Source: Candidatus Rokuibacteriota bacterium
Lineage (GTDB): Bacteria; JAUVQV01; DATDCY01
DNA length: 64,000 nt
Direction of reading: 5' to 3'
NCBI GenBank assembly: GCA_031406795.1
Contig: JANOHV010000151.1
Span: 6,232 to 70,231 of the forward strand
Each line of letters opens with the position of its first letter. Within the stretch, counting starts at the first letter, position 1. This document shows, in pieces, positions 1 to 17,139 of the stretch. The position numbers were made by a program, and so were the translations under genes. A model generated the notes under the pieces. That model searched no databases, had not been told where the DNA came from, and saw only the letters and a program-made list of their open reading frames with translations.

Positions 1-235
1 CCCTACCGACGGGTCCGCGGGCGACGAGACCGCCGAGAGCCTGATCGGACGGCTCGAAGGCGGCATCAGACGGCTCGAAGCCGAAGGGCTCCCGCGCGCC
101 GCGCTCCTGCGCCAGAGCATCATCACGCCCTCCTGCGGACTGGGCAGCCTGACCCCGGAGCACGCCGAGTCGATCTTGAAGTTGACGCTGGAGATTTCGC
201 AGCGGCTGCAGCGCTACGAGGTCAACGCGCGGTAG
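1..235 (+). CDS. 3' end of a cobalamin-independent methionine synthase (MetE-like)/URO-D superfamily protein, truncated by the window edge
   Basis: Frame 2 reads ...RQSIITPSCGLGSLTPEHAESIL...NAR* (TAG 233-235). ITPSCGL resembles the C-terminal Zn-ligand motif of MetE-like proteins. Not in the ORF track. Confidence 0.6.
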   Translation, partial: PTDGSAGDETAESLIGRLEGGIRRLEAEGLPRAALLRQSIITPSCGLGSLTPEHAESILKLTLEISQRLQRYEVNAR

Positions 236-2541
236 ATCTCCGGGACGCGCAGGGGAAGTTTGGCGACCGCGTCGATGACCACGTAGCTGACCTCGCCAAA
301 CAGATGCGCGACGTAGTCGTGCGCCTTCGGGTCGAGCGTGATGCAGAACGGGTGCACGCCGGCGAGCTTGGCCTCGGTGAGCGCGTGCCGGGTGTCTTCG
401 ACGGCGTAGTCCCCCTTGTACTCGTCGTAGTCCTCGGGCTTGCCGTCCGACAGGATCACCAGAAGCCTGCTCTTCGCTTCGGCAGCACGCAGCAGGCGCG
501 TCACGTGGCGGATCGGCGGTCCCATGCGCGTGTAGTCCCGCGGGGTGATCGCGGCGATGCGCCCCCGGACCTGCTCGCCGTAGGGCTCGTCCAGATCCTT
601 GATGTGGTAGAGCTCCGAGCGCAGGCGCCGTATGCCCGAGAAACCGTACACCCCCCAGCGGTCGCCGAGCACCTCGAGCGATTCGCACAGCAGCACCAGC
701 GACTCCCGGATTGCCGTGTTCACCCAGCCCTCGGTCGATGAGGACATGTCCACGAGAAAGACGACGGCGATGTCGCGCCGGTCGCGCGCCAGGTGGATGA
801 AGACCCGGTCGGAGACCGCTCTCCCGGCAATACGATCCGCGCGGGCCTCGATCGCCGCGTCGATGTCCACCTCGTCGCCGTCGAGTTGCCGGCGCACCAG
901 GTGCTCGCCGGTCCGCAGCCGTTCGAACGCCCGCCGGATCCGCAGCAGCGGGCCGCGATAGCGCTGCAGCGTGGCCCGGACGAACGTCGTATCCCCGGGC
1001 TCCAGCTCCAGCGGGTGCACGGAGCACCAGCCCCTGCGGAATCCGGCCCGACGAAAATCCCATTCGTCGTAGACCAGGGCCTCCGCCGCCCGCGGTCCCT
1101 CAGGCACCGCCGGCCCGGCGAAGCGCCCGGCGGCGCTCCCGGCCCGGGCGATCACCCCCGAGACGTAGCTCGTGGGAACCCCTCCCAGGTCGCGCCGGAT
1201 TTCCTCGACCAGGGCCCGCTGTTCCTGCGGTATTTCCACCTGCTGGGCGCCGATGCGGACGAAGTCGGGGCGCCCCTCGTCCACACCCTTGCCGATATTG
1301 ATGTCCGCGCGGGAGCGCGTGTCACCGCCCTCCTCCCGGGCCACCTTCCCCGTGGGCTCGCGCTCGCCCGAGTCAGGCGCGGCACCGTCTTGTTCTCCAG
1401 CCGCCAGCGGGTCGACCAGCGCTCGAAATGCCGCGATGAACTCCTCGCGGGCCTCCTCCCGCCGGGCTCTGCGACGCTCTTCGGCGAGTGACGGTCGCAG
1501 CGCGCCCTCGAAGGACGGCGGTTCCGCCGCGGACTCGCCGGTGGGAAGCGCGTCAACGAGGGGATACAGCCCCGCGACGGCCCGCGCCGCGTCCGCAGCC
1601 GTCGCGATCGGCTGCCGCAATGGCAGCAGCAGGGCCGACACGGGCGGGGGAAGATCCGCATCCGCCCCGGGCTGGTTCCAAATCCAGCGACGCAGCGATT
1701 CGAACCAGCCCTCGCGCCCATCGGGGGTCGCCGGGACGGAGCGGCGGGAAAAGTATTCCGCGAGCACCGGCACTGCCTCACGCCCCAGCCCCGGGAGCTG
1801 CGTTGGGATCCGCGCGGCCACCCGCAGCGTCGCCACCGTGTGGTACAGCCGCTGCGCAAGATCCGGTTCAGGGAAGAGCCCGAAATAATTCACGAGCCAG
1901 GCGGGGTTCGCACCCCACGAGGTCCCGAACCGACGCTCCAGCCCGGGAACCAGGGGGTCTCCCGACGGCGGCTCTGCCCGGTAGGTCCCGGCCGCGATGT
2001 GGCCCCATTGCACGGTCGCCGCAAGTTTGAAGAGCAGGAAGTTGCGGTCGAGGTCCTCGAAGACGACGATCCGCCGCGGCAGCCAGACCACGGCGGTGTC
2101 GGTGGCGGCCTCGCGCCCCTCGGCAACCTCAAGGTGCCGGCCGGCCAGGGCGCAGAGATAGGGGTGCAGCAGCCCGACCACGTCACGGTAGCGTGCGCCG
2201 TTTTCGCCGCGCAGCTCCCGCACCAGCGCGCGCCCGCCGTCGGCGATGACCGGGCGCGCCTGCTCGAGTCCGCCGGCCTCGTACGCGTCGAGGAGTGCGC
2301 CGACCCAGATCTGCAGCCTGGTTTCTCCGAAGACCTCGAGCCCCCGCGCCGCGTTGCGCAGGAATGAGAACGTCAGCGCGTGGCTCACCGGCCAGAGCGA
2401 GGGGACCAGATCGAGCACGCGTCGCTGCGCGCTCTCGGGCAGTTGCGCGAGCACTTCCGCGTATTGCTCAATCTCCCCGTCGGCGAAGTGTCCGGGACGG
2501 ATGAGCCTCTCGAGCCGCCGGCTGATCTGCGCCTCGTTCAT
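214..2541 (-). CDS. NorD/CbbO-like vWA-domain chaperone partner
   Basis: YDEWDF motif, MIDAS DMSSST, YTRMGPPIRH, LSDGKPEDYDEY; directly downstream of a NorQ-like ATPase. Confidence 0.85.
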   Translation of the reverse strand: MNEAQISRRLERLIRPGHFADGEIEQYAEVLAQLPESAQRRVLDLVPSLWPVSHALTFSFLRNAARGLEVFGETRLQIWVGALLDAYEAGGLEQARPVIADGGRALVRELRGENGARYRDVVGLLHPYLCALAGRHLEVAEGREAATDTAVVWLPRRIVVFEDLDRNFLLFKLAATVQWGHIAAGTYRAEPPSGDPLVPGLERRFGTSWGANPAWLVNYFGLFPEPDLAQRLYHTVATLRVAARIPTQLPGLGREAVPVLAEYFSRRSVPATPDGREGWFESLRRWIWNQPGADADLPPPVSALLLPLRQPIATAADAARAVAGLYPLVDALPTGESAAEPPSFEGALRPSLAEERRRARREEAREEFIAAFRALVDPLAAGEQDGAAPDSGEREPTGKVAREEGGDTRSRADINIGKGVDEGRPDFVRIGAQQVEIPQEQRALVEEIRRDLGGVPTSYVSGVIARAGSAAGRFAGPAVPEGPRAAEALVYDEWDFRRAGFRRGWCSVHPLELEPGDTTFVRATLQRYRGPLLRIRRAFERLRTGEHLVRRQLDGDEVDIDAAIEARADRIAGRAVSDRVFIHLARDRRDIAVVFLVDMSSSTEGWVNTAIRESLVLLCESLEVLGDRWGVYGFSGIRRLRSELYHIKDLDEPYGEQVRGRIAAITPRDYTRMGPPIRHVTRLLRAAEAKSRLLVILSDGKPEDYDEYKGDYAVEDTRHALTEAKLAGVHPFCITLDPKAHDYVAHLFGEVSYVVIDAVAKLPLRVPEIYRALTS

Positions 2542-2547
2542 CGCGGG

Positions 2548-3372
2548 TCAGAAAAGGGAGCTGACCAGCTCGTCGAGCGCCAGGTGCAGCTCCCGGTCGT
2601 CGGTGAGCGTCTCGGTGATTGCCGCCCGACAGGCGGTCCGCGGCGCAACCCCGGCGCGGATCAACTTGCCGGCGTGGATGAGCAGGCGCGGGCTCGCGCC
2701 CTCGGTGAGCCCGGAGTCCCGCAGGCCGCGCGTCATCGCCCCGAGGCGAACCAGCAGGCCCGCCGTCTCGGCGTCGATCCCTGCTTCGTGCCGCACGATC
2801 TCCTCCTCGAGCTGCGCCGGCGGGAACGTGAACTCGAGGGAGACGAAACGCTGACGGGTGCTGGGTTTGAGATCCTTGAGCACGCTCTGGTACCCGGGGT
2901 TGTAGGAGACGGCCAGCAGGAACCCCGGCGGCGCCTTGATCAACTCGCCGCGCTTTTCGATAGGCAGCTCGCGCCGTTCGTCCGCGAGGGGATGGATGAC
3001 CACGGTCGTATCCTTGCGCGCCTCGACGATCTCGTCCAGATAGCAGATCGCCCCGGCCCGCACCGCAACGGTCAGGGGCCCGTCCGTCCAGACCGTGTCG
3101 CCTCCCCGGATGAGGTAGCGCCCGACGAGGTCTCCCGTGGAGAGGTCGTCGTGGCACGAGACGCTGACGAGCGGCCGCCGCAGCTCCCAGGCGAGCCGCA
3201 GCATGAACCGGGTCTTCCCGCACCCGGTCGGCCCCTTGAGCAGCAGCGGCAGGCCGTTGCGGTCGGCCGCGCGCGCGATCTCCAGCTCGGTGCCCTGCGG
3301 CAGGTAGTATGGCTCGTCGGTGATCAGGTGATCGGCCGCCATCTGTGCAAGCGGTTCTTCCGGCTCGGTCAT
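2548..3372 (-). CDS. CbbQ/NirQ/NorQ family MoxR-type AAA+ ATPase
   Basis: Walker A GPTGCGKT, Walker B CYLDEIVEARKD, family motif SYNPGYQSVLKDLKPSTRQRF. Confidence 0.92.
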   Translation of the reverse strand: MTEPEEPLAQMAADHLITDEPYYLPQGTELEIARAADRNGLPLLLKGPTGCGKTRFMLRLAWELRRPLVSVSCHDDLSTGDLVGRYLIRGGDTVWTDGPLTVAVRAGAICYLDEIVEARKDTTVVIHPLADERRELPIEKRGELIKAPPGFLLAVSYNPGYQSVLKDLKPSTRQRFVSLEFTFPPAQLEEEIVRHEAGIDAETAGLLVRLGAMTRGLRDSGLTEGASPRLLIHAGKLIRAGVAPRTACRAAITETLTDDRELHLALDELVSSLF

Positions 3373-3675
3373 GCCCGCCTCCCTCGCGTGATTTCCGGGT
3401 TCTTTGCGCTGGAGTCGATTGTAGTCTGTGTGTACGTGTCATACCATGAGCGCCTCTGTCCGAAAGTCAGCGCCGCCGGCTCCGCGGGAGAACTCCGTCC
3501 GCCGGCGAGATCAGTCGGGAGTCCTCCTACGACACGGTCCTACCTGCGTGGCGGCGCCGGCCCGGACTGCTCGCGCGCTTCACCCTGCTCATGGTGCAGG
3601 CCGGGGCGGAGGGATAAGCACAGCCGCCGGGCCGGTGGAGGCCAGACCCCCTCCGCCGGCCCTGACGCGATGCGA

Positions 3676-5046
3676 TTACTTCTCGGTCACCTCATAGGCG
3701 CCGTTGGCGCCGACGACGATCACCGCGTTGAGATACCGGACCTTGTCGTACCCTTTCACGATGAGCAGGTCGTAGGCCATCTTGGCAAGGACGCCCGTAT
3801 TGCAGTGGATCACGACGTTCTTGTCCTTCGGGACCTCTGCGAAGCGCGTCTCCAGCTGGCTCTGCGGAATCGGGAGCGCGCCGACGAGTATCCCGTCCAC
3901 CGGCTGTTCGCGCACATCGACGATGAGCGTCCCTTCAGGCCGTGTGTCCACAATCTTCTTGAAATCGTCGATGGTGATCTCGCCGGGCTTGAGCGTCTTC
4001 ACGTACTCGATCTTCGCCGGCGACGCCAGCGGACCTGTTTTCAACTCACCCTTCCAGGAGCCGAGACCCTGGCGCAGGACCGTCGTGTTCACGTAGCCCC
4101 AGCCCCGCACGGTCTTGAATGCGTCGGGGCTCGCCTGCGCCGTGTCGTAGAGGACGATCGGCGCCTTCTTGTTCACCGGGAACCGGTCTTTCCACGAGGC
4201 GAGATCCTGCGCCGGGATGCCGATCGCCCCCGGAATGAACCCTTTTTCAGCCGTCGCGGCGTCGCGCAGATCGATCAGAACGAACGACTCCCCGCCCTTG
4301 ATCCAGTTTTCCAGCGCCACGGGGCCGCTGGCGACCAGTCCGCCGGCTTTCTTCCAGGCGGGCATGCCGGCGTGGAAGACCTTCACGTTGGTGTAACCCA
4401 GCGCCTCCGCCTCACGGGCGGAGAAGGGGCTGAGCGTTCAGGTTTCGCCTGCGCAGTAAAAGATCAGGAGGGCCCCCTTGTCCGCCGGCAGCAGGGCGGC
4501 CGCCTTTTCCTTGAAGCTCGCATACGGCAGACTGACGGCGCCGGGAATGTGCCCCTCGGCGAACATCGGGCCGGGACGCGAGTCGAAGAGGGCGAATTTC
4601 CCCGTATCCGGCCCCTGTGCCGCCAGTTCCAGCATCTGCTCGACCGCGATGATCTTCTCGGCCGCGAGCTTGAAGGGCTGCTTGACGGCGACCTGAACGG
4701 CCACCGGAGCCTTCTCGCCCCCCGTGAACGAGACCGCGATCTCCCGGTCGCGCGTGATCGTCTTGAGCGCGTCCGCACCGCTGATCTTCTCGCCTTCCTT
4801 GACCTTGAGATCATCGCCGTACTTGACGATCCAGACCACGGGGCCGATCGTGACGTTCATGCTCTTGAATTCACCGGAAACCGACACCATCTTGCCCCGG
4901 AGCACCCCGTCGGCCGCCTGATGGCAGATCTTGCAGGACTCCATGGTGTTCGGCTTGGCGGCCGCGACCGGCCCGGCCTCCAGGACGAGGGCCAGCGTCG
5001 CCGCCCCGGTTGCTGCGACGGCGCTCCACTTCTTGCTCTTCGGCAT
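3676..5046 (-). CDS. Exported c-type-heme, triple-rhodanese protein with probable selenocysteine (UGA at 4438-4440), 456 aa
   Basis: ORFs 4438..5046 and 3676..4386 share a frame and join as LIFYCAGET-U-TLSPFSAREAEALGYTNVKVFHAGMPAW, restoring a rhodanese domain. Signal peptide, CKICH motif, AGGAGG RBS, SECIS-like hairpin. Confidence 0.85.
4397..4434 (-). promoter_or_regulatory. Bacterial SECIS-like stem-loop
   Basis: 3' of the UGA: lower stem CUCAGC/GCUGGG, upper stem CUCCGCC/GGCGGAG, apical loop CGUGA with G at position 2, starting 22 nt after the UGA. Confidence 0.75.
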
Positions 5047-5149
5047 GGGTACACCTCCTGTTGATTGTACGTTCCCCGCGCGCGAGCGATCTCAAGTTCC
5101 GCAATCCGCTCGCTGCGCCTCGGTCAACACTCCTGTCGCCTGAATCAAG

Positions 5150-5166
5150 AGCAATGATCGTGCCTT
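5150..5166 (-). promoter_or_regulatory. Sigma54 (-24/-12) promoter of the rhodanese gene
   Basis: Minus strand AAGGCACGATCATTGCT fits GG-N10-GC and the TGGCACG-N4-TTGC consensus. Confidence 0.75.
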
Positions 5167-5231
5167 GGGAAATGGTCGGGACGGTTTCCGGGCGATCCGC
5201 CTTGGTGCAGAATTCCCGCCGAGTCGTTGTT

Positions 5232-5244
5232 AATCAATCGGTTG
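5232..5244 (+). promoter_or_regulatory. IHF-binding site
   Basis: AATCAATCGGTTG matches WATCAANNNNTTR; lies between the sigma54 promoter and an AT-rich candidate enhancer at ~5365-5420. Confidence 0.6.
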
Positions 5245-5408
5245 CGTCACGGGGAGCCGGCGGCGCGAACTCGCAACAACCTTCCTTCAGCGCGGAATCG
5301 TGTCGGCAGGCGCTCTGGAAACGACGTGCATCGCGGTCGTTCTTGCCGGAATTCCGTTCACTTACGTTAACAGGCGTTCAGTTTCATGTTACTGTGTTTA
5401 CGATTAAC

Positions 5409-6773
5409 ATGAAAATTAACGAACTGGTCAAGGATCCGGGATTCCTCGAGAGCGTCCTCGACACGATGAGCGACGGCCTCATGGTTGTCGATCCCGACGG
5501 AACCATCATTTCCTTCAACCCGGCCGCCGAGCGCATCACCGGCTACCGGCTCGAGGAGGTGATCGGCAAGCCCTGCGCGATCCTCGACACGAGCACGTGC
5601 GTCTATCACGAAGGGGACCGCACGACGATTCGCTGCTCGCTCTTCAAGGACGGCAAGGCGGTTCAGAAGAGCTGCCGCATCCGCGCGAAGGACGGCCGGG
5701 AGATTCACCTGCTCAAGAACGCCACGGTCCTGCGCGACGAGAGCGGCGCGATGATCGGCGGCATCGAAACGATGACCGACGTGACCTCGCTGGTGATCAA
5801 GGAGCGTCAGATCCAGGAATTGGCGGTGGCGATCCGCGAGGAGCAGGCCTTCCAGGGACTCGTCGGCCGCAGCCCCGGGATGCTCCGGGTCCACGAGCAG
5901 ATCAAGAACGCCGCGCGCAGCGAGGCACCCGCGGTCGTCCTCGGCGAAAGCGGCACCGGCAAGGAGCTGGTCGCCGCGGCGATCCACGCACTCAGCCGCC
6001 GCAAGGACGGCCCGTTCCTGAAAGTCAACTGCGCCGCGCTCAACGAGCACCTGCTCGAGAGCGAGCTGTTCGGGCACCGGCGGGGCGCGTTCACCGGCGC
6101 GGTGCGCGACCGCCAGGGGCGCTTTGAGGCCGCCAGCGGCGGGACGATCTTTCTCGACGAAATCGGCGACATGCCCGCCCCGATGCAGGCCAAGCTGCTG
6201 CGGGTGCTCGAAGGCAAAGAGATTGAGCGCGTCGGCGAAAATACCCCGGTCCCGATCGACGTGCGGCTGGTGTCCGCGACGAACCGCCAACTCGCGGCGC
6301 TCGTGGAGTCGGGGACATTCCGCGAGGATCTGCTCTACCGGGTGAACGTCATTCCGATCGTGCTCCCCCCGCTGCGCGATCGGGTCGAGGACATTCCCCT
6401 GCTCGTCTCGCATTTTCTCGCGCGCATCGGGGCGGCGAACGACCGGGCGGCCTTGCGGGTGACCCCGGCCGCGCTCGAAGCACTGCAGCGATGCCGCTGG
6501 CCGGGAAATGTCCGGCAACTGATCAACGCTCTGGAGTACGCCGTCATCACCTCCCGCGGCGAGGAAATCGACCTCCAGGATCTGCCGGGAAGCCTCCTGG
6601 CCGAACCCGCCAGCCTGCCGCCGCTGCGACGACGAGGCACCCTGACCCCGGAGGCGGTCCGCGCCGCCCTCGCCAGTGCCGGGGGGAGTCGCTCCGCCGC
6701 GGCCCGCGATCTCGGCGTCAGCCGAGTGACGCTCTGGAAGCGCATGAACGAGTTCGGCTTGACCGGGCGCTGA
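5409..6773 (+). CDS. PAS-domain sigma54-dependent transcriptional activator (Fis-type HTH)
   Basis: N-terminal PAS; GESGTGKE, ESELFGH, GAFTGA, FLDEIGD, WPGNVRQL; C-terminal HTH LGVSRVTLWKRM. Start placed at ATG 5409. Confidence 0.9.
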   Translation: MKINELVKDPGFLESVLDTMSDGLMVVDPDGTIISFNPAAERITGYRLEEVIGKPCAILDTSTCVYHEGDRTTIRCSLFKDGKAVQKSCRIRAKDGREIHLLKNATVLRDESGAMIGGIETMTDVTSLVIKERQIQELAVAIREEQAFQGLVGRSPGMLRVHEQIKNAARSEAPAVVLGESGTGKELVAAAIHALSRRKDGPFLKVNCAALNEHLLESELFGHRRGAFTGAVRDRQGRFEAASGGTIFLDEIGDMPAPMQAKLLRVLEGKEIERVGENTPVPIDVRLVSATNRQLAALVESGTFREDLLYRVNVIPIVLPPLRDRVEDIPLLVSHFLARIGAANDRAALRVTPAALEALQRCRWPGNVRQLINALEYAVITSRGEEIDLQDLPGSLLAEPASLPPLRRRGTLTPEAVRAALASAGGSRSAAARDLGVSRVTLWKRMNEFGLTGR

Positions 6774-8260: not shown

Positions 8261-8803
8261 TCAGGAACCGAGCGCCTTGAGGAGGGCCGCCTCGTACTGC
8301 TTCTCGGTGCCGGTTTCGAAGCCCGTGTGGACGTAGCGCACGATCCCCTTGCGGTCGATGACCAGAGTGTGGGGGACCACGAAGTTGGTGTAGGCGTCGG
8401 ATACCGTGAACTCCGGGTCTACGAGGACCGGGTAGCTCGGGTTGACCCCCACCTCCTTCATGATGGTCTTCGTGGCGGCCGCGTCCACCCCGTCGGTGAC
8501 CACGGAGAGGACCGTCACGCCCTTTCCGGCGAAGCTCTTGTGCAGCTGCTCGAGAAACGGGGCCTCCTGCAGGCAGGCGCCGCAGCGCAGCGACCAGAAG
8601 GCGAGCAGCACGACGCGGCCCTTGTTGGCGATCGACAGTTGCACCTTCCGCCCCTCGGTGTCCGCGAGGGTGAAATCCTGGGCTTTGTCCCCGACCTTGA
8701 ACTTCGAGGCCAGCTCCTCGGCCTGCGCGGGCAGGGCCGCGGCGGTCACCAGCGTCCCCACTACGGCCAGCAGCGCCGTGATCTTGAAGAACGTGCGTTT
8801 CAT
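8261..8803 (-). CDS. Exported TlpA/ResA-family thioredoxin-like protein
   Basis: Signal peptide; AFWSLRCGAC (CxxC); cis-Pro VVPHTLVIDRKG; GGAGG RBS. Confidence 0.85.
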   Translation of the reverse strand: MKRTFFKITALLAVVGTLVTAAALPAQAEELASKFKVGDKAQDFTLADTEGRKVQLSIANKGRVVLLAFWSLRCGACLQEAPFLEQLHKSFAGKGVTVLSVVTDGVDAAATKTIMKEVGVNPSYPVLVDPEFTVSDAYTNFVVPHTLVIDRKGIVRYVHTGFETGTEKQYEAALLKALGS

Positions 8804-8891
8804 CTGCGTTCCTCCCACGTCGGGTTCGTCTTCGAGTCGGGCCGTAGATAATCGGGATTGGTCCGAATGTCAAGGTCAGCCGGTCCGCCCA

Positions 8892-9116: not shown

Positions 9117-10301
9117 TCAGAACGAACCCTCCGCGCCGCCGCCGCCGAACGAGCCGCCCCGGCCGGCGACCCCGGGCGGCTCCTCGGGGAGGACGCGTGC
9201 CGCCGGGGCCAGCGCGAACGCCGCCGCAACCGGAAGCAGCCGCTCCCGGCGGCTCTCGTCATACAACGGTGCGGCGGTGAAACCGAAGCGTTCGGCGGCC
9301 ACGCCCGAGCGCAGCCAACGCTCCAGAAGCAGCGATGCCGCGGCGAGCGCAACTCCCGAGGCGGCAAGCACCACCCAGAGCGGCGCCACGTGAAGGTAGA
9401 AGCGGATGGTGGTCAGCGAGAGCGCCGCGGCCGCAATCCCCAGGGTGATCAGGGCGCGGTCGCGCGCGCGCAGTCCCCAGGCGAGCAGCGCCAGGGGATA
9501 CACTGCGGAGCCGATCCCGGCCAGGAACAAGGTGGCCTCAGCCGCGTGGTGGCGCGGGGCGCCGACCAGCCGGCCGAGTTCTTCGAGGATGCCCTTGTCC
9601 ACCGAATAGTAGTTGATGGCGCCGTACAGCCCCGCGAGCGCGACGAGGCGCGCGAGCCCAACGCCCTCCCGATGGGACGGGGCAAGTTCGCGCATTTCGC
9701 GCACCTTGCCGGCCCCGGCCGCGATGAGCGCAGCCGCCGCAATCCAGACCAGACGGGCGCCGGGGAACTGGGTCGACCAGAGAAGGACGAAGAGCGCAGC
9801 CGCCCCGGCGTACAGCCGAAAACCCCAGCGCCACGCGGCCAGGGCGCAGACCGTCGCGCACCAGGGGTAGGTCAGCCGCAGCGCCTCGTGACCACGAAAG
9901 TGCAGATCGTCGAGCAGCACGAACACGGCCGCGCCGAGGTAGCCCACGGCGAGCAGCGAGGTCGCCGCCTCGGCCCCGGTGGGCCGGAACGAACAGCGGT
10001 CGATGATGATGTCCGTGATGGTCGCCAGACCGACGCCGAAGATCAGCAGCGCCAGACCGACGCCGTCCGCGCTGCGCACTCCGAAGCTGATGAACCCGAC
10101 CGCGGTGGCGGTCGAGACCCCGGAAACGACGCAGAGAAAGACCAGGATCCGCCAGATCGGGCCGAGCTGGGGGCCGCCCAGGGAGTACTCGGAACCGATC
10201 GCTCCGAACGCGGCTTCGTCGATGAGGCCGGCTGCCCGCCAGCCCTGGGCAGCCGCGAGCAGCTCGGCGCCGCGATCCGCACTTCGCCATGCTGCTTTCA
10301 T
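9117..10301 (-). CDS. Polytopic membrane protein (DUF2157-like) with a Gly-rich C-terminus
   Basis: Starts MKAAWRS after GGAG; about 10-11 hydrophobic segments; ends GGSFGGGGAEGSF; ATGA overlap with the upstream gene. Confidence 0.65.
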   Translation of the reverse strand: MKAAWRSADRGAELLAAAQGWRAAGLIDEAAFGAIGSEYSLGGPQLGPIWRILVFLCVVSGVSTATAVGFISFGVRSADGVGLALLIFGVGLATITDIIIDRCSFRPTGAEAATSLLAVGYLGAAVFVLLDDLHFRGHEALRLTYPWCATVCALAAWRWGFRLYAGAAALFVLLWSTQFPGARLVWIAAAALIAAGAGKVREMRELAPSHREGVGLARLVALAGLYGAINYYSVDKGILEELGRLVGAPRHHAAEATLFLAGIGSAVYPLALLAWGLRARDRALITLGIAAAALSLTTIRFYLHVAPLWVVLAASGVALAAASLLLERWLRSGVAAERFGFTAAPLYDESRRERLLPVAAAFALAPAARVLPEEPPGVAGRGGSFGGGGAEGSF

Positions 10302-11263
10302 CGCTCCTCCTTGAAGCGCCGGTGCGCCCAGAGGATGAGCAGGAGCACGCCGAAACTCCCCGCCGAGACCAGATAGAAGAGACCCTCTCTGAGGTGCAGC
10401 TCGGCCGCGAGCCTGAGAAAGCCGAGAAAGCCGGCGACGACGCCCTGGGCGAAGTAATCGGAGCGCCCGGCGCGGAAGGCCAGCGCGATGGTCGCCGCGG
10501 CGAGAGCCGCGAGCGTGGCGAGCCACGCGACGTCGAGGTGCCCGTAGCCCGCGTACGCGCCGGCGACCGCCGCCCCGAGCAGCAGCAGCAGGCCGAGATT
10601 CCCGAATGCGGGTTCGAAGTGCGCCTTGCGCCCGGTGCGTTTGCAAAGGATTCCGAAGCCGAAGAAGAACGCGCCGACGACCAGCGCGTTGACGCGGATT
10701 GCCGCCTCGTGTTGCCCGAACGGCACGCCGCCCGGGAAGGAAAGCGCGACGCCGCGCCAGGCCGCGAACGACGCCAGCGCGAGCGAGAGCACGGCGCGCG
10801 AATCGTAGCGGAACGCGAAGGCGAGCTGGAGCAGCGAGAGTACGAAGAGGTGCCAGGGCCAGTTCTGGCCGAGGAGCTTGTACTGCGTCTCGAAATAGCC
10901 GAGATCGGTCCCGATCAGCAGCACACCGAGGAGCAGGACGTAATCGAAGCCGAGCGTCGGCGAGATAACCGGGCCCCAGGAGAAGGGCGCCGCGACGTGC
11001 ACGACATACCAGAGACAGAGCGCGGCGGCGAGCCCGATGCCGGCGCCGATCGTCACCGGGCCGAGCTGCGCGAGGTTCTCCTTGACCAGAATGCCGGCGC
11101 CGGCGGCGGCCATCGTGACCCCGGCCCACAGGGCGAGCTGCAGCTCGACGCGCACCGAAACCAGCTCGCCCCGCGCGACGCGCCCGAAGAAGCCGGCCTG
11201 GACGTCGTTGAGAATGCCCCGCGCCCGCAGATGGCCGATGAACGCAAGCAGGTTGCTGTTCAT
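10298..11263 (-). CDS. Polytopic membrane protein (DUF2157-like)
   Basis: N-terminal LRARGIL, many TM segments, translationally coupled to the next gene. Confidence 0.7.
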   Translation of the reverse strand: MNSNLLAFIGHLRARGILNDVQAGFFGRVARGELVSVRVELQLALWAGVTMAAAGAGILVKENLAQLGPVTIGAGIGLAAALCLWYVVHVAAPFSWGPVISPTLGFDYVLLLGVLLIGTDLGYFETQYKLLGQNWPWHLFVLSLLQLAFAFRYDSRAVLSLALASFAAWRGVALSFPGGVPFGQHEAAIRVNALVVGAFFFGFGILCKRTGRKAHFEPAFGNLGLLLLLGAAVAGAYAGYGHLDVAWLATLAALAAATIALAFRAGRSDYFAQGVVAGFLGFLRLAAELHLREGLFYLVSAGSFGVLLLILWAHRRFKEER

Positions 11264-11371: not shown

Positions 11372-12643
11372 TCAGATCGGTCCGCCAACCCCGTGACAGA
11401 GGGTGATATTGAAGCAACCAGGCGTACCGGGGTTCGACTGGTGGCAGCGGGCGCAGACCGGGGCGTTCGCCTGGTCTGTCGACTTGTGACGGCTCACGCG
11501 CCAGCCGGCGCTGGCGTGCGGGGCACTCCAGCCGTGACAGCCGATATTAACGTGACAGGTCTGGATGGACGACCCGCCATCGAGAAAGAGCCCGTGACAG
11601 GTCTGGCAATTCGCGAACCCGGGGGAAGCCGCCTTGGCGGCAGCGCCGTGCTGACTCCCGGCCGACCAGCCTGCGGGGTGGCAGGCGCCGGTGATATGTG
11701 CGGCGGTGACGGCGAAACAACTGGGCGTGCCCTTGCCGGCGTGGCAGCCGGCGCATTCGGCGGCCGCGCTCTGGTTCGTCCGCCGATGCAAGGTGCGCCA
11801 GCCCGCGGGGTGGCGACCGCTCCTGACGCCGTGGCAGAGCGTGCTGTTGAAGCAACCGGGCGTGCCGGCGCTCGATTGGTGGCAGCCGGCGCACGTCGAG
11901 GCCTGGCCCTGGTCAGCTTCGGGGTGAGATCGGAGCCAGCCTCCGGGGTGCGGGCTCTTGGCGCCATGGCAGAGGGTGTTGTTGAAGCAGCCGGGCGCGC
12001 CGGGATTCGACCGATGGCAGCCGACGCAGACGGCGGCCTCACCCTGGTCCGTCCGGGGATGGCTTTGCAGCCAACCCGCGGGGTGGTAGCTTTTCGCTCC
12101 ATGGCAGAGGGTGTTGTTGAAGCAGCCGGGCGCACCGGCGTTCGTCTGGTGACAGCCGGTGCAGGCGGAAGCCTGATTCTGGTTCGTCCTGGAATGGCTG
12201 CGGAGCCAATCCGCGGGGTGGTCGGACTTGGGCCCGTGGCAGAGACTGTTGTCGAAACAGTTGGGGACCCGATTGTTGCCCTTGTTGTCGTGGCAGACGG
12301 CGCACTCGGCGGCCCTGGAGCGATCCGCCGCGTGCTGCGCACGCCAGTCCGCGCCGGCGGGATGCCCATCGGGACCGCCCGGGTGGCAGGCCTGGCCGTC
12401 GCGGGAGGTCGAATAGCAGCTGAGCGTCGCGATGCCGCCGCGCAAATCGTCGCCATGGCACTCGGCGCACGACGCGGCCCCGGAGTTGCGGTACTCGGCG
12501 GAGTGCTTCGGGAAGAAATCCTCCGGGTGTCCCCCATCCGGGTCGAACGGTGCGCCGTGCTTTTTCGAGCAGCCGACCACGAGCACCGCAAGAAGCGCCC
12601 AGCCGATCGTCAGTGCCCGGGAACTCCGCTTTGAATGTGACAT
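11372..12643 (-). CDS. Multiheme cytochrome c lipoprotein, paralog B (8 CX2CH plus 8 extended CXnCH motifs)
   Basis: Lipobox VVGC; alternating CxxCH and CFNNTLCH-type motifs; AGGAGG RBS. Confidence 0.85.
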   Translation of the reverse strand: MSHSKRSSRALTIGWALLAVLVVGCSKKHGAPFDPDGGHPEDFFPKHSAEYRNSGAASCAECHGDDLRGGIATLSCYSTSRDGQACHPGGPDGHPAGADWRAQHAADRSRAAECAVCHDNKGNNRVPNCFDNSLCHGPKSDHPADWLRSHSRTNQNQASACTGCHQTNAGAPGCFNNTLCHGAKSYHPAGWLQSHPRTDQGEAAVCVGCHRSNPGAPGCFNNTLCHGAKSPHPGGWLRSHPEADQGQASTCAGCHQSSAGTPGCFNSTLCHGVRSGRHPAGWRTLHRRTNQSAAAECAGCHAGKGTPSCFAVTAAHITGACHPAGWSAGSQHGAAAKAASPGFANCQTCHGLFLDGGSSIQTCHVNIGCHGWSAPHASAGWRVSRHKSTDQANAPVCARCHQSNPGTPGCFNITLCHGVGGPI

Positions 12644-12689
12644 ATACAGCACCTCCTGTGTTCTGATGCCGCGTCGGCGCTCAGGGTTT

Positions 12690-12988
12690 CGGCGGGGCGC
12701 CCCCGCCGCGCAAAATCGGGAAAATCACGGAGATGTCCCGGTCTTCGAGCCCGTGCGCGAACGAGAGCGCGAAGAGCTCCTTCACCGCCGCCGCCGTGAA
12801 GAGGGGCCGGTGCAGCGGCGAACGCGTCCTCCTCGCCGCTGACGAACACCGCGAGCTCCCCCGCCGAGAGGCTCGGCTTTCTCGGGGGTGCGATTCCAGA
12901 TCAGCAAAGGGTGTCCGGCGGCGGCCAGGCGCCCGGCGACAACGCTGCCGAGGGCGCCGAGCCCGATGAAACCGATCGTCTCCTTCAT
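12690..12988 (-). pseudogene. Internally deleted 3-hydroxyisobutyrate-dehydrogenase-like NAD(P)-dependent oxidoreductase
   Basis: N-terminal IGFIGLGALG..WNRTPEKA, middle GELAVFVSGEEDAF and C-terminal PLFTAAAVKELFALSFAHGLEDRDIS lie in three different frames within 300 bp. Confidence 0.75.
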
Positions 12989-13055
12989 GCCACGGCCTTT
13001 CTCATTCGGGGGCGGAGTGCGCGCCGCGAGCTTCAGCGGCGACGACGCCCTGCCT

Positions 13056-13775
13056 TCACTTGACGATGTCGTAGAGGAATTTCTTGTTCATGCTCGCGTG
13101 GGGATTGTGGCAGAGATAACAGACCCGGCTGCGCGACTTCTCGACGTGATCGAGACTCCCGGGCTGGTCGTGGCAGGCGCTGCACATCGTCCTGGCGTCG
13201 TCGACCGTCAGCGCGGGCCAGCTGGACCCGTGGGGTTCGTGGCAGACAACGCACTTGCCGGCGGCGAGCGGACCATGAACATAGGGGTAGATCATCGCCA
13301 GCTTGCGGTGGCAGGACTTGCAGGTCTCGGACTCCGCATTTACCGCCGGGCGGCGCACGCCGGCATGACACTCGGCGCAGCGACCCTCCAGTACCGGCAC
13401 GTGGTAGCGGTAGGGGGCCCGTCCCCGGCCACCCGAGCCGTAGATGAAAGTGAGTTTCGCGTCGAGTTCGCCGACCCGCGCATCCAGGGTGTGGGGTCCC
13501 GGACCCGGGGTGAGCTTGGCCGAGAAGGTGTCTCCGAGACGCGTGATGTCGACCACCGGGGCTCCGTCGAGAAGCAGATTCACGAAACCGGCGCCCGTGG
13601 GAATCCGTCCGGCCACGACCACCGTGCCCGCGGGAATGAACGCCCCCGCCGCGGGCATGACGAACTCGATCGCCCCGCCGGGCGGCACTGCGGTGTCGGC
13701 GGCACGTGAGACCCCGGCGACGACGAAAGCGGCCACCAGAGCGATGGGGGCGAAAACGCGAAAATATAAATGCAT
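13056..13775 (-). CDS. Exported pentaheme cytochrome c (doubled-CXXCH type) with an N-terminal beta-rich domain
   Basis: Signal peptide; CAECH, CKSCH, CVVCHEPHGS, CSACH, CYLCHNPHAS. Confidence 0.85.
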   Translation of the reverse strand: MHLYFRVFAPIALVAAFVVAGVSRAADTAVPPGGAIEFVMPAAGAFIPAGTVVVAGRIPTGAGFVNLLLDGAPVVDITRLGDTFSAKLTPGPGPHTLDARVGELDAKLTFIYGSGGRGRAPYRYHVPVLEGRCAECHAGVRRPAVNAESETCKSCHRKLAMIYPYVHGPLAAGKCVVCHEPHGSSWPALTVDDARTMCSACHDQPGSLDHVEKSRSRVCYLCHNPHASMNKKFLYDIVK

Positions 13776-13895
13776 ATTCTTATTATAGACCACTGCGGAC
13801 TATTGATTCGTGCGTTCCGTGACAGCCGGCCGACCGCAGGTCCGAGCGGGTGCTCGGAAGATAAGAATCCTTGCGCTGCAGTTTCCGGAGCAAAC

Positions 13896-13924
13896 CGGAG
13901 CCGGGCCGCCATGGCCCGGCTCCG
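13896..13924 (-). terminator. Hairpin/terminator after the porin-cytochrome operon
   Basis: Perfect 12-bp stem CGGAGCCGGGCC/GGCCCGGCTCCG followed by GTTTG on the minus strand. Confidence 0.55.
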
Positions 13925-13962
13925 CTCTTCAACCTCTTCGAAGCCGTTTTCAGGTCAATCCG

Positions 13963-15222
13963 TCAATCCCCGTGACAGAGCGTGCTGTTGAAACAGCCGG
14001 GTGTGCCGACGTTCGACTGGTGACATCGGGCGCAGACCGGCGCATTCCCCTGGCTGGTCGTCTGATGTCGGCCGCCGCCGCCGCGCCAGCCGACGCTGGC
14101 GTGCGGGGCGCTCCAGCCGTGACAGCCGACATTGGCGAGACAGGTCTGATTGGCCGATCCGCCATCCAGCCCAGGCCCGTGACAGGACTGGCAGTTCCCG
14201 AATCCAGGGGACAACGCCTTGGCAGCGGCGCCGTGCTGAGTCCCCGCCGACCAGCCCACGGGGTGGCCGACACCTGCGCCATGGCAGGCAGAGGCGGTGA
14301 AGCAACTGGGCGTGCCCTTTTCAGGGTGACAAGCGGCGCAGCCCGTTGCCGCGCTCTGGGTCGTGCTCTGGTGTGTGGTGCGCCAGCCCGCGGGGTGCTG
14401 CGCGCTTTTCACGCCGTGGCAGAGGGTACTGTTGAAGCAGCCGGGCGTGCCGGCGTTCAATCGGTGGCAGCCGGCGCAGGTGGAAGCCTGGCCCTGGTCC
14501 GTTGCGGAGTGGGATTGCAGCCAGCCCGCAGGGTGCGAACTCTTGGTGCCGTGGCAGAGCGTGTTGTTGAAACAACCGGGCGCGCCGGCGTTGGTCAGGT
14601 GGCAGCCGGCGCAGACGGAAGCCTGGTTCTGGTTCGTTCCCGTGTGGGATTGCAGCCAGCCCGCAGGGTGCGAACTCTTGGTGCCGTGGCAGAGGGTGTT
14701 GTTGAAACAGCCGGGCGTGCCGGCGTTCGTCTGGTGGCAGGCGGCGCAGTTCGAGGCCAGCGACGGGTTGGTCCCCGCATGGGCGGCTCGCCAACCCGAG
14801 GGGTGGCCGGACTTGGGTCCGTGACAGAGGCTGTTGTCAAAGCAGTTGGGGGCCTGGTTGTTGGCTTTGTTGTCGTGGCAGACGGCGCACTCGGCCGCCT
14901 TGGAGGAATCCGCCGAGTGCAGCGCGCGCCAGCCGGCGGGGTGGCCGCCGGGACCGCCCGGGTGACAGCCCTGGCCGTCGCGGGAGCTCGAATAGCAACT
15001 CACCGTCGCGATGCCGCCGAGCAGATCGATCCCATGGCACTCGGCGCATGCCCCGCCACCGGAGTTGCGGTACTCGGCGGAGTGGTTCGGAAAGAAGTCT
15101 TCCGGGTGCCCTCCATCCGGGTCGAACGGTGCGCCGTGCTTCTTCGAGCAGCCGACCACGAGCAGCGCGAGCAGCGCACAGCCGATCGCAATCGCCCTGG
15201 AACTGCGGCTCACTTGTGACAT
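13963..15222 (-). CDS. Multiheme cytochrome c lipoprotein, paralog A (8 CX2CH plus 8 extended CXnCH motifs)
   Basis: Lipobox VVGC; 135-bp internal repeats (e.g. 14521 vs 14656); GGAGG RBS; overlaps the upstream pentaheme gene. Confidence 0.85.
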   Translation of the reverse strand: MSQVSRSSRAIAIGCALLALLVVGCSKKHGAPFDPDGGHPEDFFPNHSAEYRNSGGGACAECHGIDLLGGIATVSCYSSSRDGQGCHPGGPGGHPAGWRALHSADSSKAAECAVCHDNKANNQAPNCFDNSLCHGPKSGHPSGWRAAHAGTNPSLASNCAACHQTNAGTPGCFNNTLCHGTKSSHPAGWLQSHTGTNQNQASVCAGCHLTNAGAPGCFNNTLCHGTKSSHPAGWLQSHSATDQGQASTCAGCHRLNAGTPGCFNSTLCHGVKSAQHPAGWRTTHQSTTQSAATGCAACHPEKGTPSCFTASACHGAGVGHPVGWSAGTQHGAAAKALSPGFGNCQSCHGPGLDGGSANQTCLANVGCHGWSAPHASVGWRGGGGRHQTTSQGNAPVCARCHQSNVGTPGCFNSTLCHGD

Positions 15223-15653
15223 ATGCCACACCTCCCCACGTTCTTGCGCCCGTGGCAGGGGAAGCAGGAGGCCGGATCGAGCTTCCCGTCGGCCCGGTGC
15301 TGGGTCAGGTAGTCCCCGCGGTGCGGCGTGCCCGAATCGAAGCGGCCCAGGCGCTTGTCGGAGGGCTTGATCTCCTCCTTGTTGCCGTGGCAATCAGCGC
15401 AGGACGAAACCTGATGGCACATCTCGCAGGTGCGCTGGTCCCGCAAGGCGACCGCGCCGTGCGATTTCATCCACCGCGCGTCGTGATCGGAGGCGGCGCT
15501 GTCGGCATCGTGGCAGGAAGTGCAGATCGGCGCGCCCTGCACCTTCTCGGGGTGGACGAAGGCGGCGCTCTTGGGTCCGGCGCACGCCCCGAGCAGCCCC
15601 GCCGCCGTCAACAGCAGCGCGGCCGCGAAGACCATGGTTGATCGGGTCATCAC
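15210..15653 (-). CDS. Pentaheme cytochrome c lipoprotein (size and position like Geobacter ExtC)
   Basis: Lipobox LGAC; CTSCH, CEMCH, CADCH, CFPCH, CGICH. Confidence 0.85.
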   Translation of the reverse strand: MMTRSTMVFAAALLLTAAGLLGACAGPKSAAFVHPEKVQGAPICTSCHDADSAASDHDARWMKSHGAVALRDQRTCEMCHQVSSCADCHGNKEEIKPSDKRLGRFDSGTPHRGDYLTQHRADGKLDPASCFPCHGRKNVGRCGICHK

Positions 15654-16918
15654 TTGGTGCCTCCTTTCTTGATCGAGGCGTCGTAACGCCAGAGCACGGC
15701 GAGGAGCCCCTTGATTTCACGGTCGAATTCGGGAGTCTCTCCGTACTCGCCCGAGGCCGAAAGCTCGAGGGACTTGCTCAAGGCGTAGCTCAACCCGAGT
15801 TTCCCGGTCGTCGCGATCGTCTCGCCGTTGATTGCGACCCCATACGTCACGTACTCGGCGCCCAAGGAGAGGTGCACGGGGCCGAAGGCTTTTGTCGCGT
15901 GTGCGCTGATCTCCTGGTACCGGTCCTCCTCGGCTTCGCCGTGGACCTGCCGGTAGCCCGCCCCTGCCGTTGCCCCCGATCTGGCCCAGGAGAGACGCGC
16001 GCCGTACGTGCTGCCGTCGCTGCCCCCTTCGTCTGGGGCTCGGAACGCCGCATATTCGCCGGCAATGGTGAAACCAAGGCCGAGGACGATCTCGACCTCG
16101 CCGCCGTACCGGTCGTGCTTCGCGTCTTCGATCGGCAGCAAGGCGCGGTTGAGGGGCTCCTTGAAGTAAGCGGTGTAGTCGGTGGAGGCCCACGTTGCGG
16201 TGAGCCGCACCCGCTTCGCGAACGGGCCGAGAACAAGCCGATAGTCATGACGGGCCCACTTGCTGTCGGCCACACTGTACAGGGAAGTTCCCGTCAGCTC
16301 GACGAGCCGCAGCGGAGCCAGGAAGAGGTCCGAACCGGCCTCTTCGCGCACGTCCTCGCCGTCGTTCTGCTCCTTGAGGTAGGAGGCTCCCAGACGATAG
16401 AGCCCGGCGCGTCCCTGCGAGATGCGGCCGCCGTACAGCAGGTCCTTGGAGCGGCCCCCTTCCTCGACCTCGACGGGAACCCCGCCGAAGAACGTCACAT
16501 CGAACCCTGCCGGCAGATCGCTGCCGAGCATCAAACCGTCGAAGACTTCGTGGCGTGCCACCCCTGCGGTGAGCGAAACCCGCCCCACGCGGGCTTCGGC
16601 GTTGCGTTGCGGCGCGCGCCAGCCCAGGAATGCGTACTGCAGCTCGCTGTTGCTCTTGCGCCCCAAAGTTTCATCAGCCAGGTCGGCCCTGCCCCAGCCG
16701 CCGACCCGCAGGTACACGCCCGGCTGCATGAGGTCCTCGGCATTGAGGGTCAGATATTCGTAGGGCAGCACATGAGTATTCTCCCCGTCGGTGCCACGCG
16801 CGAGAACATAAGTCCGCGACTCGAGCGAGATTTCCGTTGCCGTCGCCGGGGGCGCGCCGACAGCCAGCGCGGCTCCCAGAAGGGCGAGTGCGGAAAAAGC
16901 TGTGACAATCTTCACCAT
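15650..16918 (-). CDS. Outer-membrane beta-barrel protein of a putative porin-cytochrome conduit
   Basis: Signal peptide; alternating Gly/aromatic beta strands; last strand ...VLWRY; first gene of a cytochrome operon; AAGGAGG RBS. Confidence 0.7.
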   Translation of the reverse strand: MVKIVTAFSALALLGAALAVGAPPATATEISLESRTYVLARGTDGENTHVLPYEYLTLNAEDLMQPGVYLRVGGWGRADLADETLGRKSNSELQYAFLGWRAPQRNAEARVGRVSLTAGVARHEVFDGLMLGSDLPAGFDVTFFGGVPVEVEEGGRSKDLLYGGRISQGRAGLYRLGASYLKEQNDGEDVREEAGSDLFLAPLRLVELTGTSLYSVADSKWARHDYRLVLGPFAKRVRLTATWASTDYTAYFKEPLNRALLPIEDAKHDRYGGEVEIVLGLGFTIAGEYAAFRAPDEGGSDGSTYGARLSWARSGATAGAGYRQVHGEAEEDRYQEISAHATKAFGPVHLSLGAEYVTYGVAINGETIATTGKLGLSYALSKSLELSASGEYGETPEFDREIKGLLAVLWRYDASIKKGGTK

Positions 16919-17139
16919 GACCTCCTTTCGGTGCAATCCTGCGTGGTTGAAAAATCCGACATCAGACTTCGTCCTACGGGAGAAACAATACGCCCTCCCG
17001 AAACAATAGCAACCCTGGGTGTCAATTTTCCCATACGCATAGCCTAGTCACGGCGTCGGGAATGCACTGTGACGCAAATCACTCAGACTGTTCCCGCTCT
17101 CGAACGTGACGTCGTGCCGAGGCAGGCGCGTCGTTGATC

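Follow-up and report, generated by a model that had tools for sequence, protein, structure and literature searches.

The cytochrome cluster and its repeat proteins

The stretch of DNA analyzed here, referred to as the window, comprises 64,000 nucleotides (nt) of a Candidatus Rokuibacteriota genome (assembly GCA_031406795.1, contig JANOHV010000151.1) and contains a cluster of multiheme cytochrome genes on its minus strand. In order of transcription, the cluster consists of a gene for a beta-barrel ('porin-like') protein of 428 amino acids (aa) with a signal peptide (15650..16936), which is the first gene of the module; a gene for a small pentaheme cytochrome c of 147 aa, a lipoprotein (LLGAC) with five CXXCH motifs (15210..15653); gene 1, encoding a lipoprotein multiheme cytochrome of 419 aa (13963..15222); a gene between the two large ones for a cytochrome c of 245 aa with a signal peptide, five CXXCH motifs, and a paired-CXXCH domain (13056..13793); and gene 2, encoding a paralogous lipoprotein multiheme cytochrome of 423 aa (11372..12643). 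Genes 1 and 2 encode the proteins named A and B in a preliminary description of this DNA. The ATG of gene 1 at 15222 has GGGGAGG 8 nt ahead of it, and the start of the gene overlaps the stop of the pentaheme gene (TGA 15210-15212) by 13 nt. The open reading frame (ORF) list gives gene 2 a span of 11372-12652; its true start is probably the ATG at 12643, which has AGGAGG upstream and yields the 423 aa.

The two large proteins are built from a repeated unit of 45 residues, HPxGWxxxH...CxxCH...CFNNTLCHG. A mechanical motif count finds eight CX2CH motifs in the gene 1 protein, alternating strictly with eight long motifs (one CX9CH and seven CX5CH), and eight CX2CH in the gene 2 protein, alternating with one CX9CH, six CX5CH, and one altered site that reads nominally as 'CX11CH'. 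These numbers match exactly the alternation of eight canonical and eight extended motifs set out in the preliminary description. The unit of ~45 aa (135 bp) reported there is likewise recovered by Tandem Repeats Finder as a period of 135 in both genes, at 14413-14837 in gene 1 (2.5-3.1 copies, 81-88% matches) and at 11827-12222 in gene 2 (2.9 copies, 75% matches). Both proteins begin with an N-terminal GG...SC-Xn-CH unit, which holds the CX9CH, followed by five short PGCFNNTLCH units and then by one unit of each kind. The five tandem diheme units, numbered 2-6, occupy 14266..14943 in gene 1 and 11681..12364 in gene 2, both on the minus strand. Both proteins start with a lipoprotein signal that ends in LVVGC, and conservation of its lipobox Cys reaches at least 90% across the family alignment. 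The proteins are 72% identical (304/420), and the ratio of nonsynonymous to synonymous substitution (dN/dS) between the paralogs is 0.26 at a dS of 0.57; both paralogs are therefore maintained by purifying selection. The tandem repeat is under purifying selection and lies far beyond chance.

The altered site of gene 2, CFAVTAAHITGACH (11678..11719, minus strand), is a CX5CH that lost its second Cys to Ala, together with a new Cys one residue ahead of the His of the next unit's HPAGW. Where the gene 1 protein has CFTASACH...GVGHP, the gene 2 protein has CFAVTAAH...GACHP, and the nominal 'CX11CH' is not a stretched loop. The swap from X5 to X11 that had been read between the paralogs is thus a relocated Cys; the tolerance of loop length that was drawn from it holds in the family, in which n runs from 2 to 9 at one position. 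A further peculiarity of gene 2 is its unit-7 CX5CH (11534-11557, minus strand), which reads CHVNIGCH where gene 1 has CLANVGCH and so contains an extra, spurious 'CH'.

Each 45-aa unit has two further His, the His of HPxGW and the one at +8, as had been noted earlier for both proteins, and the totals are 33 His for the 16 motifs of gene 1 and 35 for gene 2. Each pair of units contains four Cys...Cys-His motifs and four extra His, which corresponds to the eight His per module of ~90-100 residues of a cytochrome c3. The mature gene 1 protein (395 residues) is composed of 12% VILMFWY, 8.4% Cys, and 8.4% His. Its 24.7 residues per putative heme agree with the earlier estimate of ~25, and its composition appears to resemble that of heme-packed cytochromes.

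The reading favored here is that each large gene encodes an outer-membrane lipoprotein formed by a chain of c3-like diheme units. In each unit, one heme would be attached to the CX2CH motif and the second to the longer Cys-Xn-Cys-His motif, which takes the form CX9CH in the N-terminal unit; in all other units it is CX5CH, most often within P-G-C-F-N-N-T-L-C-H. The two hemes would be bis-His ligated through the two extra His of the unit. The gene 1 protein would then hold 16 hemes in 395 mature residues and the gene 2 protein 15 or 16, forming a dense heme wire that is scored as an octaheme by counters limited to CX2-4CH. The large lipoprotein would act as the surface component of a three-part conduit, in which the pentaheme is threaded in the barrel, and the conduit would let electrons cross the outer membrane, either toward an external partner or away from it. 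The properties inferred here are the occupancy and ligation of the hemes, exposure at the surface, and function; the probability that the long motifs bind heme and that the proteins serve in such a conduit, taken jointly, is put at roughly 0.6.

The repeat family and probable heme attachment at its long motifs

A full HMMER scan over 1.84 billion cluster representatives at E <= 0.001, the repeat search that the preliminary description had called for, identified 394 relatives, of which 184 are found at E <= 1e-10. The best 150 of the 394 contain 323 CX5CH and 104 CX9CH motifs; in a set of 152 family proteins, the respective counts are 336 (CFNNTLCH 125, CFNSTLCH 55) and 106. The number of motifs per relative, again among the best 150, ranges from a few to more than 30. 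The family is therefore modular, and this variation in unit number bears out the extensible repeat family envisaged at the outset. In most relatives, diheme units of two kinds follow each other in alternation, GG...SC-Xn-CH with variable n and PGCFNNTLCH with n nearly always 5.

A motif scan of 185,579 species genomes gave 197 pattern matches, of which 134 encode relatives. By their record labels, on which the tally rests, the 79 loci kept belong to Nitrospirota (23), Geobacterales/Desulfuromonadales (25), 'Deltaproteobacteria' (10), Deferrimicrobium-like bacteria (4), Holophagae (4), and others (13). Cultured carriers among them are Oryzomonas japonica Red96, Geomonas silvestris Red330, and Geothrix terrae SG184. 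The member in Geothrix terrae SG184 (L083:5956-6609) is a 217-aa protein with 12 His, five CX2CH, and one CX5CH (spacers 2,2,2,2,2,5). The closest locus, at 78% identity, lies in a metagenome-assembled genome labeled Candidatus Rokubacteria. The source organism is uncultured and comes from a small lineage. Within its phylum, four of the six species genomes in the collection carry the family, the window's own genome included, and genes 1 and 2 are the only two copies in that genome.

Conservation of the long motifs was assessed in alignments of these relatives. In an alignment of 54 sequences, a CFNNTLCH has the invariant positions C172, N174, C178, and H179, and the neighboring CxxCH and a distal His are invariant as well; in an alignment of 118 sequences, the C, C, and H of both CX5CH motifs of the C-terminal module are kept in at least 90% of the rows. 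An alternative reading is that the proteins are octahemes, in which only the eight CX2CH motifs bind heme and the CX5C(H) forms either a disulfide or a Cys2His2 metal site (for example Zn) that staples a heme-poor linker. The invariant His directly after the second Cys argues against the disulfide, which needs no such His.

The spacer at the position of CLANVGCH also bears on this alternative. In the 118-row alignment, it is 2 in 71 rows, 5 in 29, 4 in 5, 3 in 2, 6 in 2, 7 in 1, and 9 in 3, and a regular-expression count agrees, with 111 cases of n = 2 and 64 of n = 5. Canonical and long motifs therefore replace each other at one site, and a structural staple is difficult to reconcile with a homologous place that is CX2CH in 71 of the 118 rows. 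The position of CFNSTLCH is far more constant, with n = 5 in 99 of the 118 rows and n = 2 in 8. Two of these eight, the distant relatives P0111 and P0121, share the short HPxG[YF]xxxH...CxxCH unit and carry CxxCH at the CFNSTLCH position; most of the other rows listed come from relatives farther away or represent the other unit type, aligned at this position.

This constancy weighs against heme at every long motif. In close relatives the CFNNTLCH-type site is almost never CX2CH, and its fixed spacer could equally reflect a special non-heme role, as would be expected of a metal-binding or structural loop. It also allows for mixed occupancy, in which the CX9CH of unit 1 and the CLANVGCH of unit 7 bind heme, sites of the CFNNTLCH type bind none or are partly occupied, and the protein carries ~10 hemes; the altered unit 6 of gene 2 may then be a dead site. 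Strong interchange with CX2CH is confined to the first kind of site (71/118 vs 8/118), an hhalign comparison joins the two unit types over their first halves only (probability 57%, E 1e-4), and one site of gene 2 lacks its second Cys, all of which would suit mixed occupancy. Against it stand P0111 and P0121, whose short unit has CxxCH at the very place of CFNNTLCH, and the two lines of evidence described below, namely a His slope common to the long motifs, the majority being of the CFNNTLCH type, and Pfam c3 alignments that end exactly on the CH of CFNNTLCH. Mixed occupancy is regarded as very improbable.

The number of His in the family rises in step with the number of long motifs. Regression over the 152 proteins gives His = 2.04 x n(CX2CH) + 2.07 x n(CX3-15CH) + 1.5 (R2 0.98), and the corresponding Cys slopes are 1.98 for CX2CH and 1.99 for the long motifs. 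A His slope of ~2 per long motif indicates that each adds extra His of its own, in line with a bis-His heme. The same relation can be claimed for octahemes, as a Cys2His2 metal site would match the His and Cys counts equally well. Such proteins would nevertheless have to find another role for ~16 conserved His and 16 Cys in a chain with only 12% hydrophobic residues, and to our knowledge an alternation of heme and zinc modules in secreted cytochromes has not been described.

Profile comparisons place the long motifs on heme sites of known cytochromes. The Pfam model PF02085 (class III, c3) matches the gene 2 protein with 32.1 bits (cut-off 22.9), aligning residues 106-185 with positions 24-99 of 101. 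In the relatives P0003 and P0004 (44 and 50.5 bits), the match spans from the first CxxCH to the CH of CFNNTLCH, so that four repeat motifs fall on the four-heme domain. In a search of the PDB, the best matches of the family profile are 16-heme Hmc proteins from Desulfovibrio (1z1n, E 8.2e-7; 2e84, 1gws, and 1h29, E ~3e-3), and the HMMER alignments put CFNnTLCH on the CKRCH / CRSCH of Hmc. The c3 and Hmc alignments thus assign the motif to real heme sites, which counts against octahemes. At E <= 0.001, 70 of the 118 members match PF14522 (Cytochrome_C7), 52 match PF14537 (c3_2), and 36 match PF02085, and the nearest ESM Atlas clusters of the large cytochrome are of the c3/c7 type.

A number of results temper this assignment. 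The gene 1 protein scores 21.1 bits against PF02085, just under the cut-off, and the Hmc and Pfam alignments are supportive only, because they are driven largely by Cys/His columns and show high bias. A phmmer search of the gene 1 protein against the PDB gave no match, and a narrow profile of six near-identical double units gave chance matches only (E >= 0.32). The full-length AlphaFold2 model of the gene 1 protein is poor, with a predicted local distance difference test score (pLDDT) of 55 overall and below 50 in the CX5CH loops. The C-terminal four-motif module of the same protein is well predicted (pLDDT 84.7); for this module Foldseek found no match at E <= 0.001 and VIA-align no Z >= 2 among 48,161 chains, bearing in mind that the model is heme-free and that heme-free models of heme-rich proteins align poorly. 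The fold searches do not confirm a c3 fold and speak neither for nor against it, and the sequence data would also be compatible with a CX5C disulfide.

The lists of known heme-binding motifs given in PMC11492766 and PMC9250108 comprise CX2CH, CXCK/CX2CK, CX3CH, CX4CH, CX11CH, CX15CH, and CX17CH. The absence of CX5CH from these lists favors octahemes, as does a full-text literature search, which found no relevant paper on CX5CH in c-type cytochromes, with the limit that supplementary tables may list members under other names.

Heme maturation provides a further point in favor of octahemes. The CX15CH site of MccA requires a dedicated CcsA-type lyase, and a search for additional ccsA/ccmF paralogs had been proposed. 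The genome encodes System II, with ResB and an adjacent CcsA-like gene, and lacks CcmE. Its three PF01578 matches, none of them on the contig of the window, lie beside ResB, beside hemA, and, in the case of a weak one, beside enolase; a dedicated CcsA-type lyase was not found among them. Heme attachment would presumably be carried out by the general System II (CcsBA/ResBC) machinery of the genome. In the wider family, ccsA-like genes occur within flanks of ~6 kb in seven of the 79 loci, from several phyla (L018, L032, L044, L070, L079, L081, L082), and resB-like genes in the same flanks of three; in some lineages the flanking ccsA-like genes possibly represent a dedicated System II heme lyase. 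Downstream of the cluster in the window, a gene on the same strand (8261..8818) encodes a secreted thioredoxin-like protein of the TlpA/ResA type with a signal peptide, a CGAC active site, and Pfam matches to AhpC-TSA / Redoxin. Homologs of this gene flank eight of the 79 related loci. The protein could reduce apocytochrome cysteines before heme attachment, and its presence nearby fits disulfide chemistry, as in the octaheme alternative, just as well.

On balance, heme at the long motifs is considered probable. On the question of 16 versus 8 hemes, as the preliminary description had framed it, the interchange with CX2CH, the two His per motif, and the alignment with c3 and Hmc, all of which are comparative arguments, favor the higher number; octahemes are considered unlikely.

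The barrel-pentaheme-cytochrome module

The 428-aa protein encoded ahead of the cytochromes has a weak match to Pfam Porin_4 (E 3.7e-4, below the cut-off), and its nearest ESM Atlas cluster is annotated 'Beta-barrel porin 2 family protein' (score 0.99). Where at least 1900 nt of upstream sequence is available (69 loci), barrel, pentaheme, and large lipoprotein are colinear in 52 cases, and in 53 of 73 loci the gene immediately ahead of the large cytochrome encodes a homolog of the pentaheme. In 30 aligned homologs of the pentaheme, the five CXXCH motifs and five further His are invariant and the lipobox Cys24 is at least 90% conserved; the 147-aa cytochrome is therefore a pentaheme lipoprotein. 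The lipid anchoring of the large proteins proposed earlier is upheld by the lipobox in both of them and by the conserved porin-cytochrome neighborhood. A conduit of this composition would hold two lipoprotein cytochromes and no soluble periplasmic ones.

A complex model of the barrel with the pentaheme passed with a score of 0.67, while the best of three controls scored 0.00. The mark applied is reached by 58 of 80 solved complexes and by 2 of 110 mismatched pairs, counts that hold only roughly here because custom alignments were used. The runs have at least 62% of contacts in common, and the pLDDT of the partner is at least 57. Along the strands every second residue makes contact, over the full circumference of the barrel, as would be expected of a cytochrome in the barrel lumen. 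The weight of this model is reduced by the consideration that the pass may reflect MtrAB-like structures that the prediction model has learned. Sequence profiles do not point to such relatives: the barrel profile finds no sequence in the PDB at E <= 1, the best PDB match of the pentaheme profile is OmcA at E 0.038 only, leaving it with no solved sequence relative, and the large-cytochrome profile reaches MtrC at E 0.064, so that homology to MtrAB/MtrC was not obtained.

The heme count would be unchanged if the large lipoproteins were instead located on the inner leaflet of the outer membrane, serving as an electron store or as a periplasmic relay like Hmc and not as terminal reductases or oxidases exposed at the surface. 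The closest solved relatives by profile are the periplasmic Hmc proteins, and in diderm bacteria the periplasm is the default side for lipoproteins. The pentaheme is also a lipoprotein, so that one or both of the lipoproteins must function on the periplasmic side. The small cytochrome is the one modeled inside the barrel, which would leave the large one as the natural outer partner, and the conserved order of barrel, small cytochrome, and large lipoprotein matches the elements of Geobacter conduits as described in PMC6148476. A purely periplasmic location is thus held to be rather unlikely, and a role of the large lipoproteins in an outer-membrane conduit, as suggested by gene order and the complex model, is the reasonably likely one.

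In two metatranscriptome libraries of one study, contigs of 2922 and 2226 nt are 97-98% identical to the stretch of barrel, pentaheme, and gene 1. The contigs span 13869-16936 of the window and part of gene 2 (11372-12027); parts of the window that no contig covers (e.g. 13046-13789) are uninformative on expression. Among the differences listed between the contigs and gene 1, 19 of 27 are synonymous and none affects a motif Cys or His; another 44 differences along the stretch fall outside this list. These data hint that the module of a close relative is used in nature, with DNA carry-over as a possible source of the contigs.

Some loci display unusual reading frames. In L009, the locus of the closest relative, the barrel homolog has an ORF of just 237 aa, and the pentaheme and large-cytochrome frames look merged or broken; in L069 and L080 the ORF of the barrel homolog is 696 aa. 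These ORFs may be assembly errors, frameshifts, or fusions. Rough ORF calls in L009, L064, and L070 had uncertain starts or merged frames, and of that set only the result for L083 is used.

The remaining genes of the cluster are less widely shared. The 245-aa cytochrome between the large genes matches Pfam Paired_CXXCH_1 (E 1.4e-18) and NCBIfam TIGR01905, and a homolog is present in one of the 79 related loci, L009. Downstream of gene 2, two membrane proteins without a Pfam family are encoded on the same strand (9117..11263), one of 321 aa (10298-11263) and one of ~336 aa (9117-10127); they are kept beside the cluster in L009 only (1/79 loci) and are possibly part of the transcription unit. 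Promoter and terminator scans found nothing near the cytochrome cluster. The sigma-54 promoter pattern had 11 matches against 20.6 expected, none of them near the cluster. Elsewhere in the window, at 214-6773, a CbbQ/NorQ-type AAA protein adjoins a 775-aa protein without a Pfam match, and the same region encodes two rhodanese-domain proteins and a PAS/sigma-54 activator.

Relation to known cytochromes and implications

The gene set belongs to known kinds, namely c3/Hmc-type cytochromes, non-canonical CXnCH sites, and porin-cytochrome conduits, and does not constitute a novel type of system. In classical c3, CX2CH takes turns with CX4CH, and the repeat of the window can be described as the same alternation with one more residue, CX5CH. 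The likeness to Hmc extends to sixteen sites in c3-like modules, to His counts of the bis-His type, and to ~25-35 residues per heme in both. In contrast to the window family, whose spacer is 5 (or 9) and whose units form a regular 45-aa tandem repeat, the aligned sites of Hmc are CX2CH. The Hmc proteins are soluble periplasmic subunits of a membrane redox complex, whereas those of the window are lipoproteins encoded beside an outer-membrane barrel. The sequence similarity between the two is weak, driven by Cys and His, and without a structural match.

Longer CXnCH motifs alternating with CX2CH are also found in the Geobacter family PF09698 / TIGR01904, which likewise comprises multiheme cytochromes of metal-reducing bacteria; its spacer is 4, compared with 5 in the window family. 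ESM Atlas clusters with PF09698 are among the nearer neighbors (scores 0.86-0.88). Neither window protein matches PF09698 at E <= 0.1, and two of 118 relatives do so at E <= 0.001. No NCBIfam model matches gene 1 or gene 2, and no specific Pfam or NCBIfam model covers their repeat; the possibility raised in the preliminary description, that a characterized family already covers it, is thus not borne out by these databases.

The window family would share with MccA and OmcZ the principle that two Cys followed by a His attach a c-type heme across a spacer of more than two residues. OmcZ carries a CX14CH heme site. Both MccA and OmcZ have a single special site per protein, in contrast to the window family, in which the long motifs account for half of all sites, have a short fixed spacer of 5, and come without a dedicated lyase that could be found. 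The long-spacer sites of MccA-type proteins are given as CX11CH, CX15CH, and CX17CH in the motif lists of PMC11492766 and PMC9250108.

According to the description in PMC6148476, three elements define a Geobacter conduit: a beta-barrel integral to the outer membrane and two multiheme cytochromes, one located on the periplasmic side and the other a lipoprotein, with 5-15 hemes and 25-72 kDa for the components. The module of the window has the same three elements as MtrCAB of Shewanella and as OmbB-OmaB-OmcB and Ext of G. sulfurreducens, the Geobacter systems being compared by description. Its genes are adjacent and overlapping, the small cytochrome is modeled inside the barrel as in porin-cytochrome conduits, and the duplicated large cytochrome recalls omcB/omcC. 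The inner cytochrome, a 147-aa pentaheme that is itself a lipoprotein, differs from the Geobacter components as they are described there. The PCC3/PCC4 systems of iron oxidizers (PMC5566968) and the PCC clusters of Candidatus Manganitrophus (PMC9040806) were set apart by their descriptions, which report much larger heme numbers or dodecahemes.

Taken further, CX5CH, in the form P-G-C-F-N-N-T-L-C-H, might constitute an undescribed class of heme site that accounts for half of the family's hemes and, with the barrel and pentaheme, might mark an unrecognized and widespread type of conduit in Nitrospirota, Geobacterales/Desulfuromonadales, Deferrimicrobia-like bacteria, Holophagae, and small uncultured phyla. 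This wider claim is tentative and falls somewhat short of an even chance.

Heme number is the first reading taken from the sequence of a multiheme cytochrome, and candidates for bioelectrochemistry, for the cycling of iron and manganese, and for extracellular electron transfer are ranked by it. The survey described in PMC5566968 counts CX2CH, CX3CH, and CX4CH only. The counting rules stated there and in PMC11492766 and PMC9250108 credit the family with at most half of its probable hemes, and if the reading favored here is true, heme counters and gene surveys of extracellular electron transfer under-score it by up to half. Heme binding by CX5CH would widen the range of spacers handled by the general maturation machinery. 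The 45-residue diheme unit, with its ~25 residues per heme, would then be a natural building block for protein wires, and the three-gene module, present in many uncultured lineages of sediment and groundwater and in three cultured strains, would be a testable candidate for an electron conduit.

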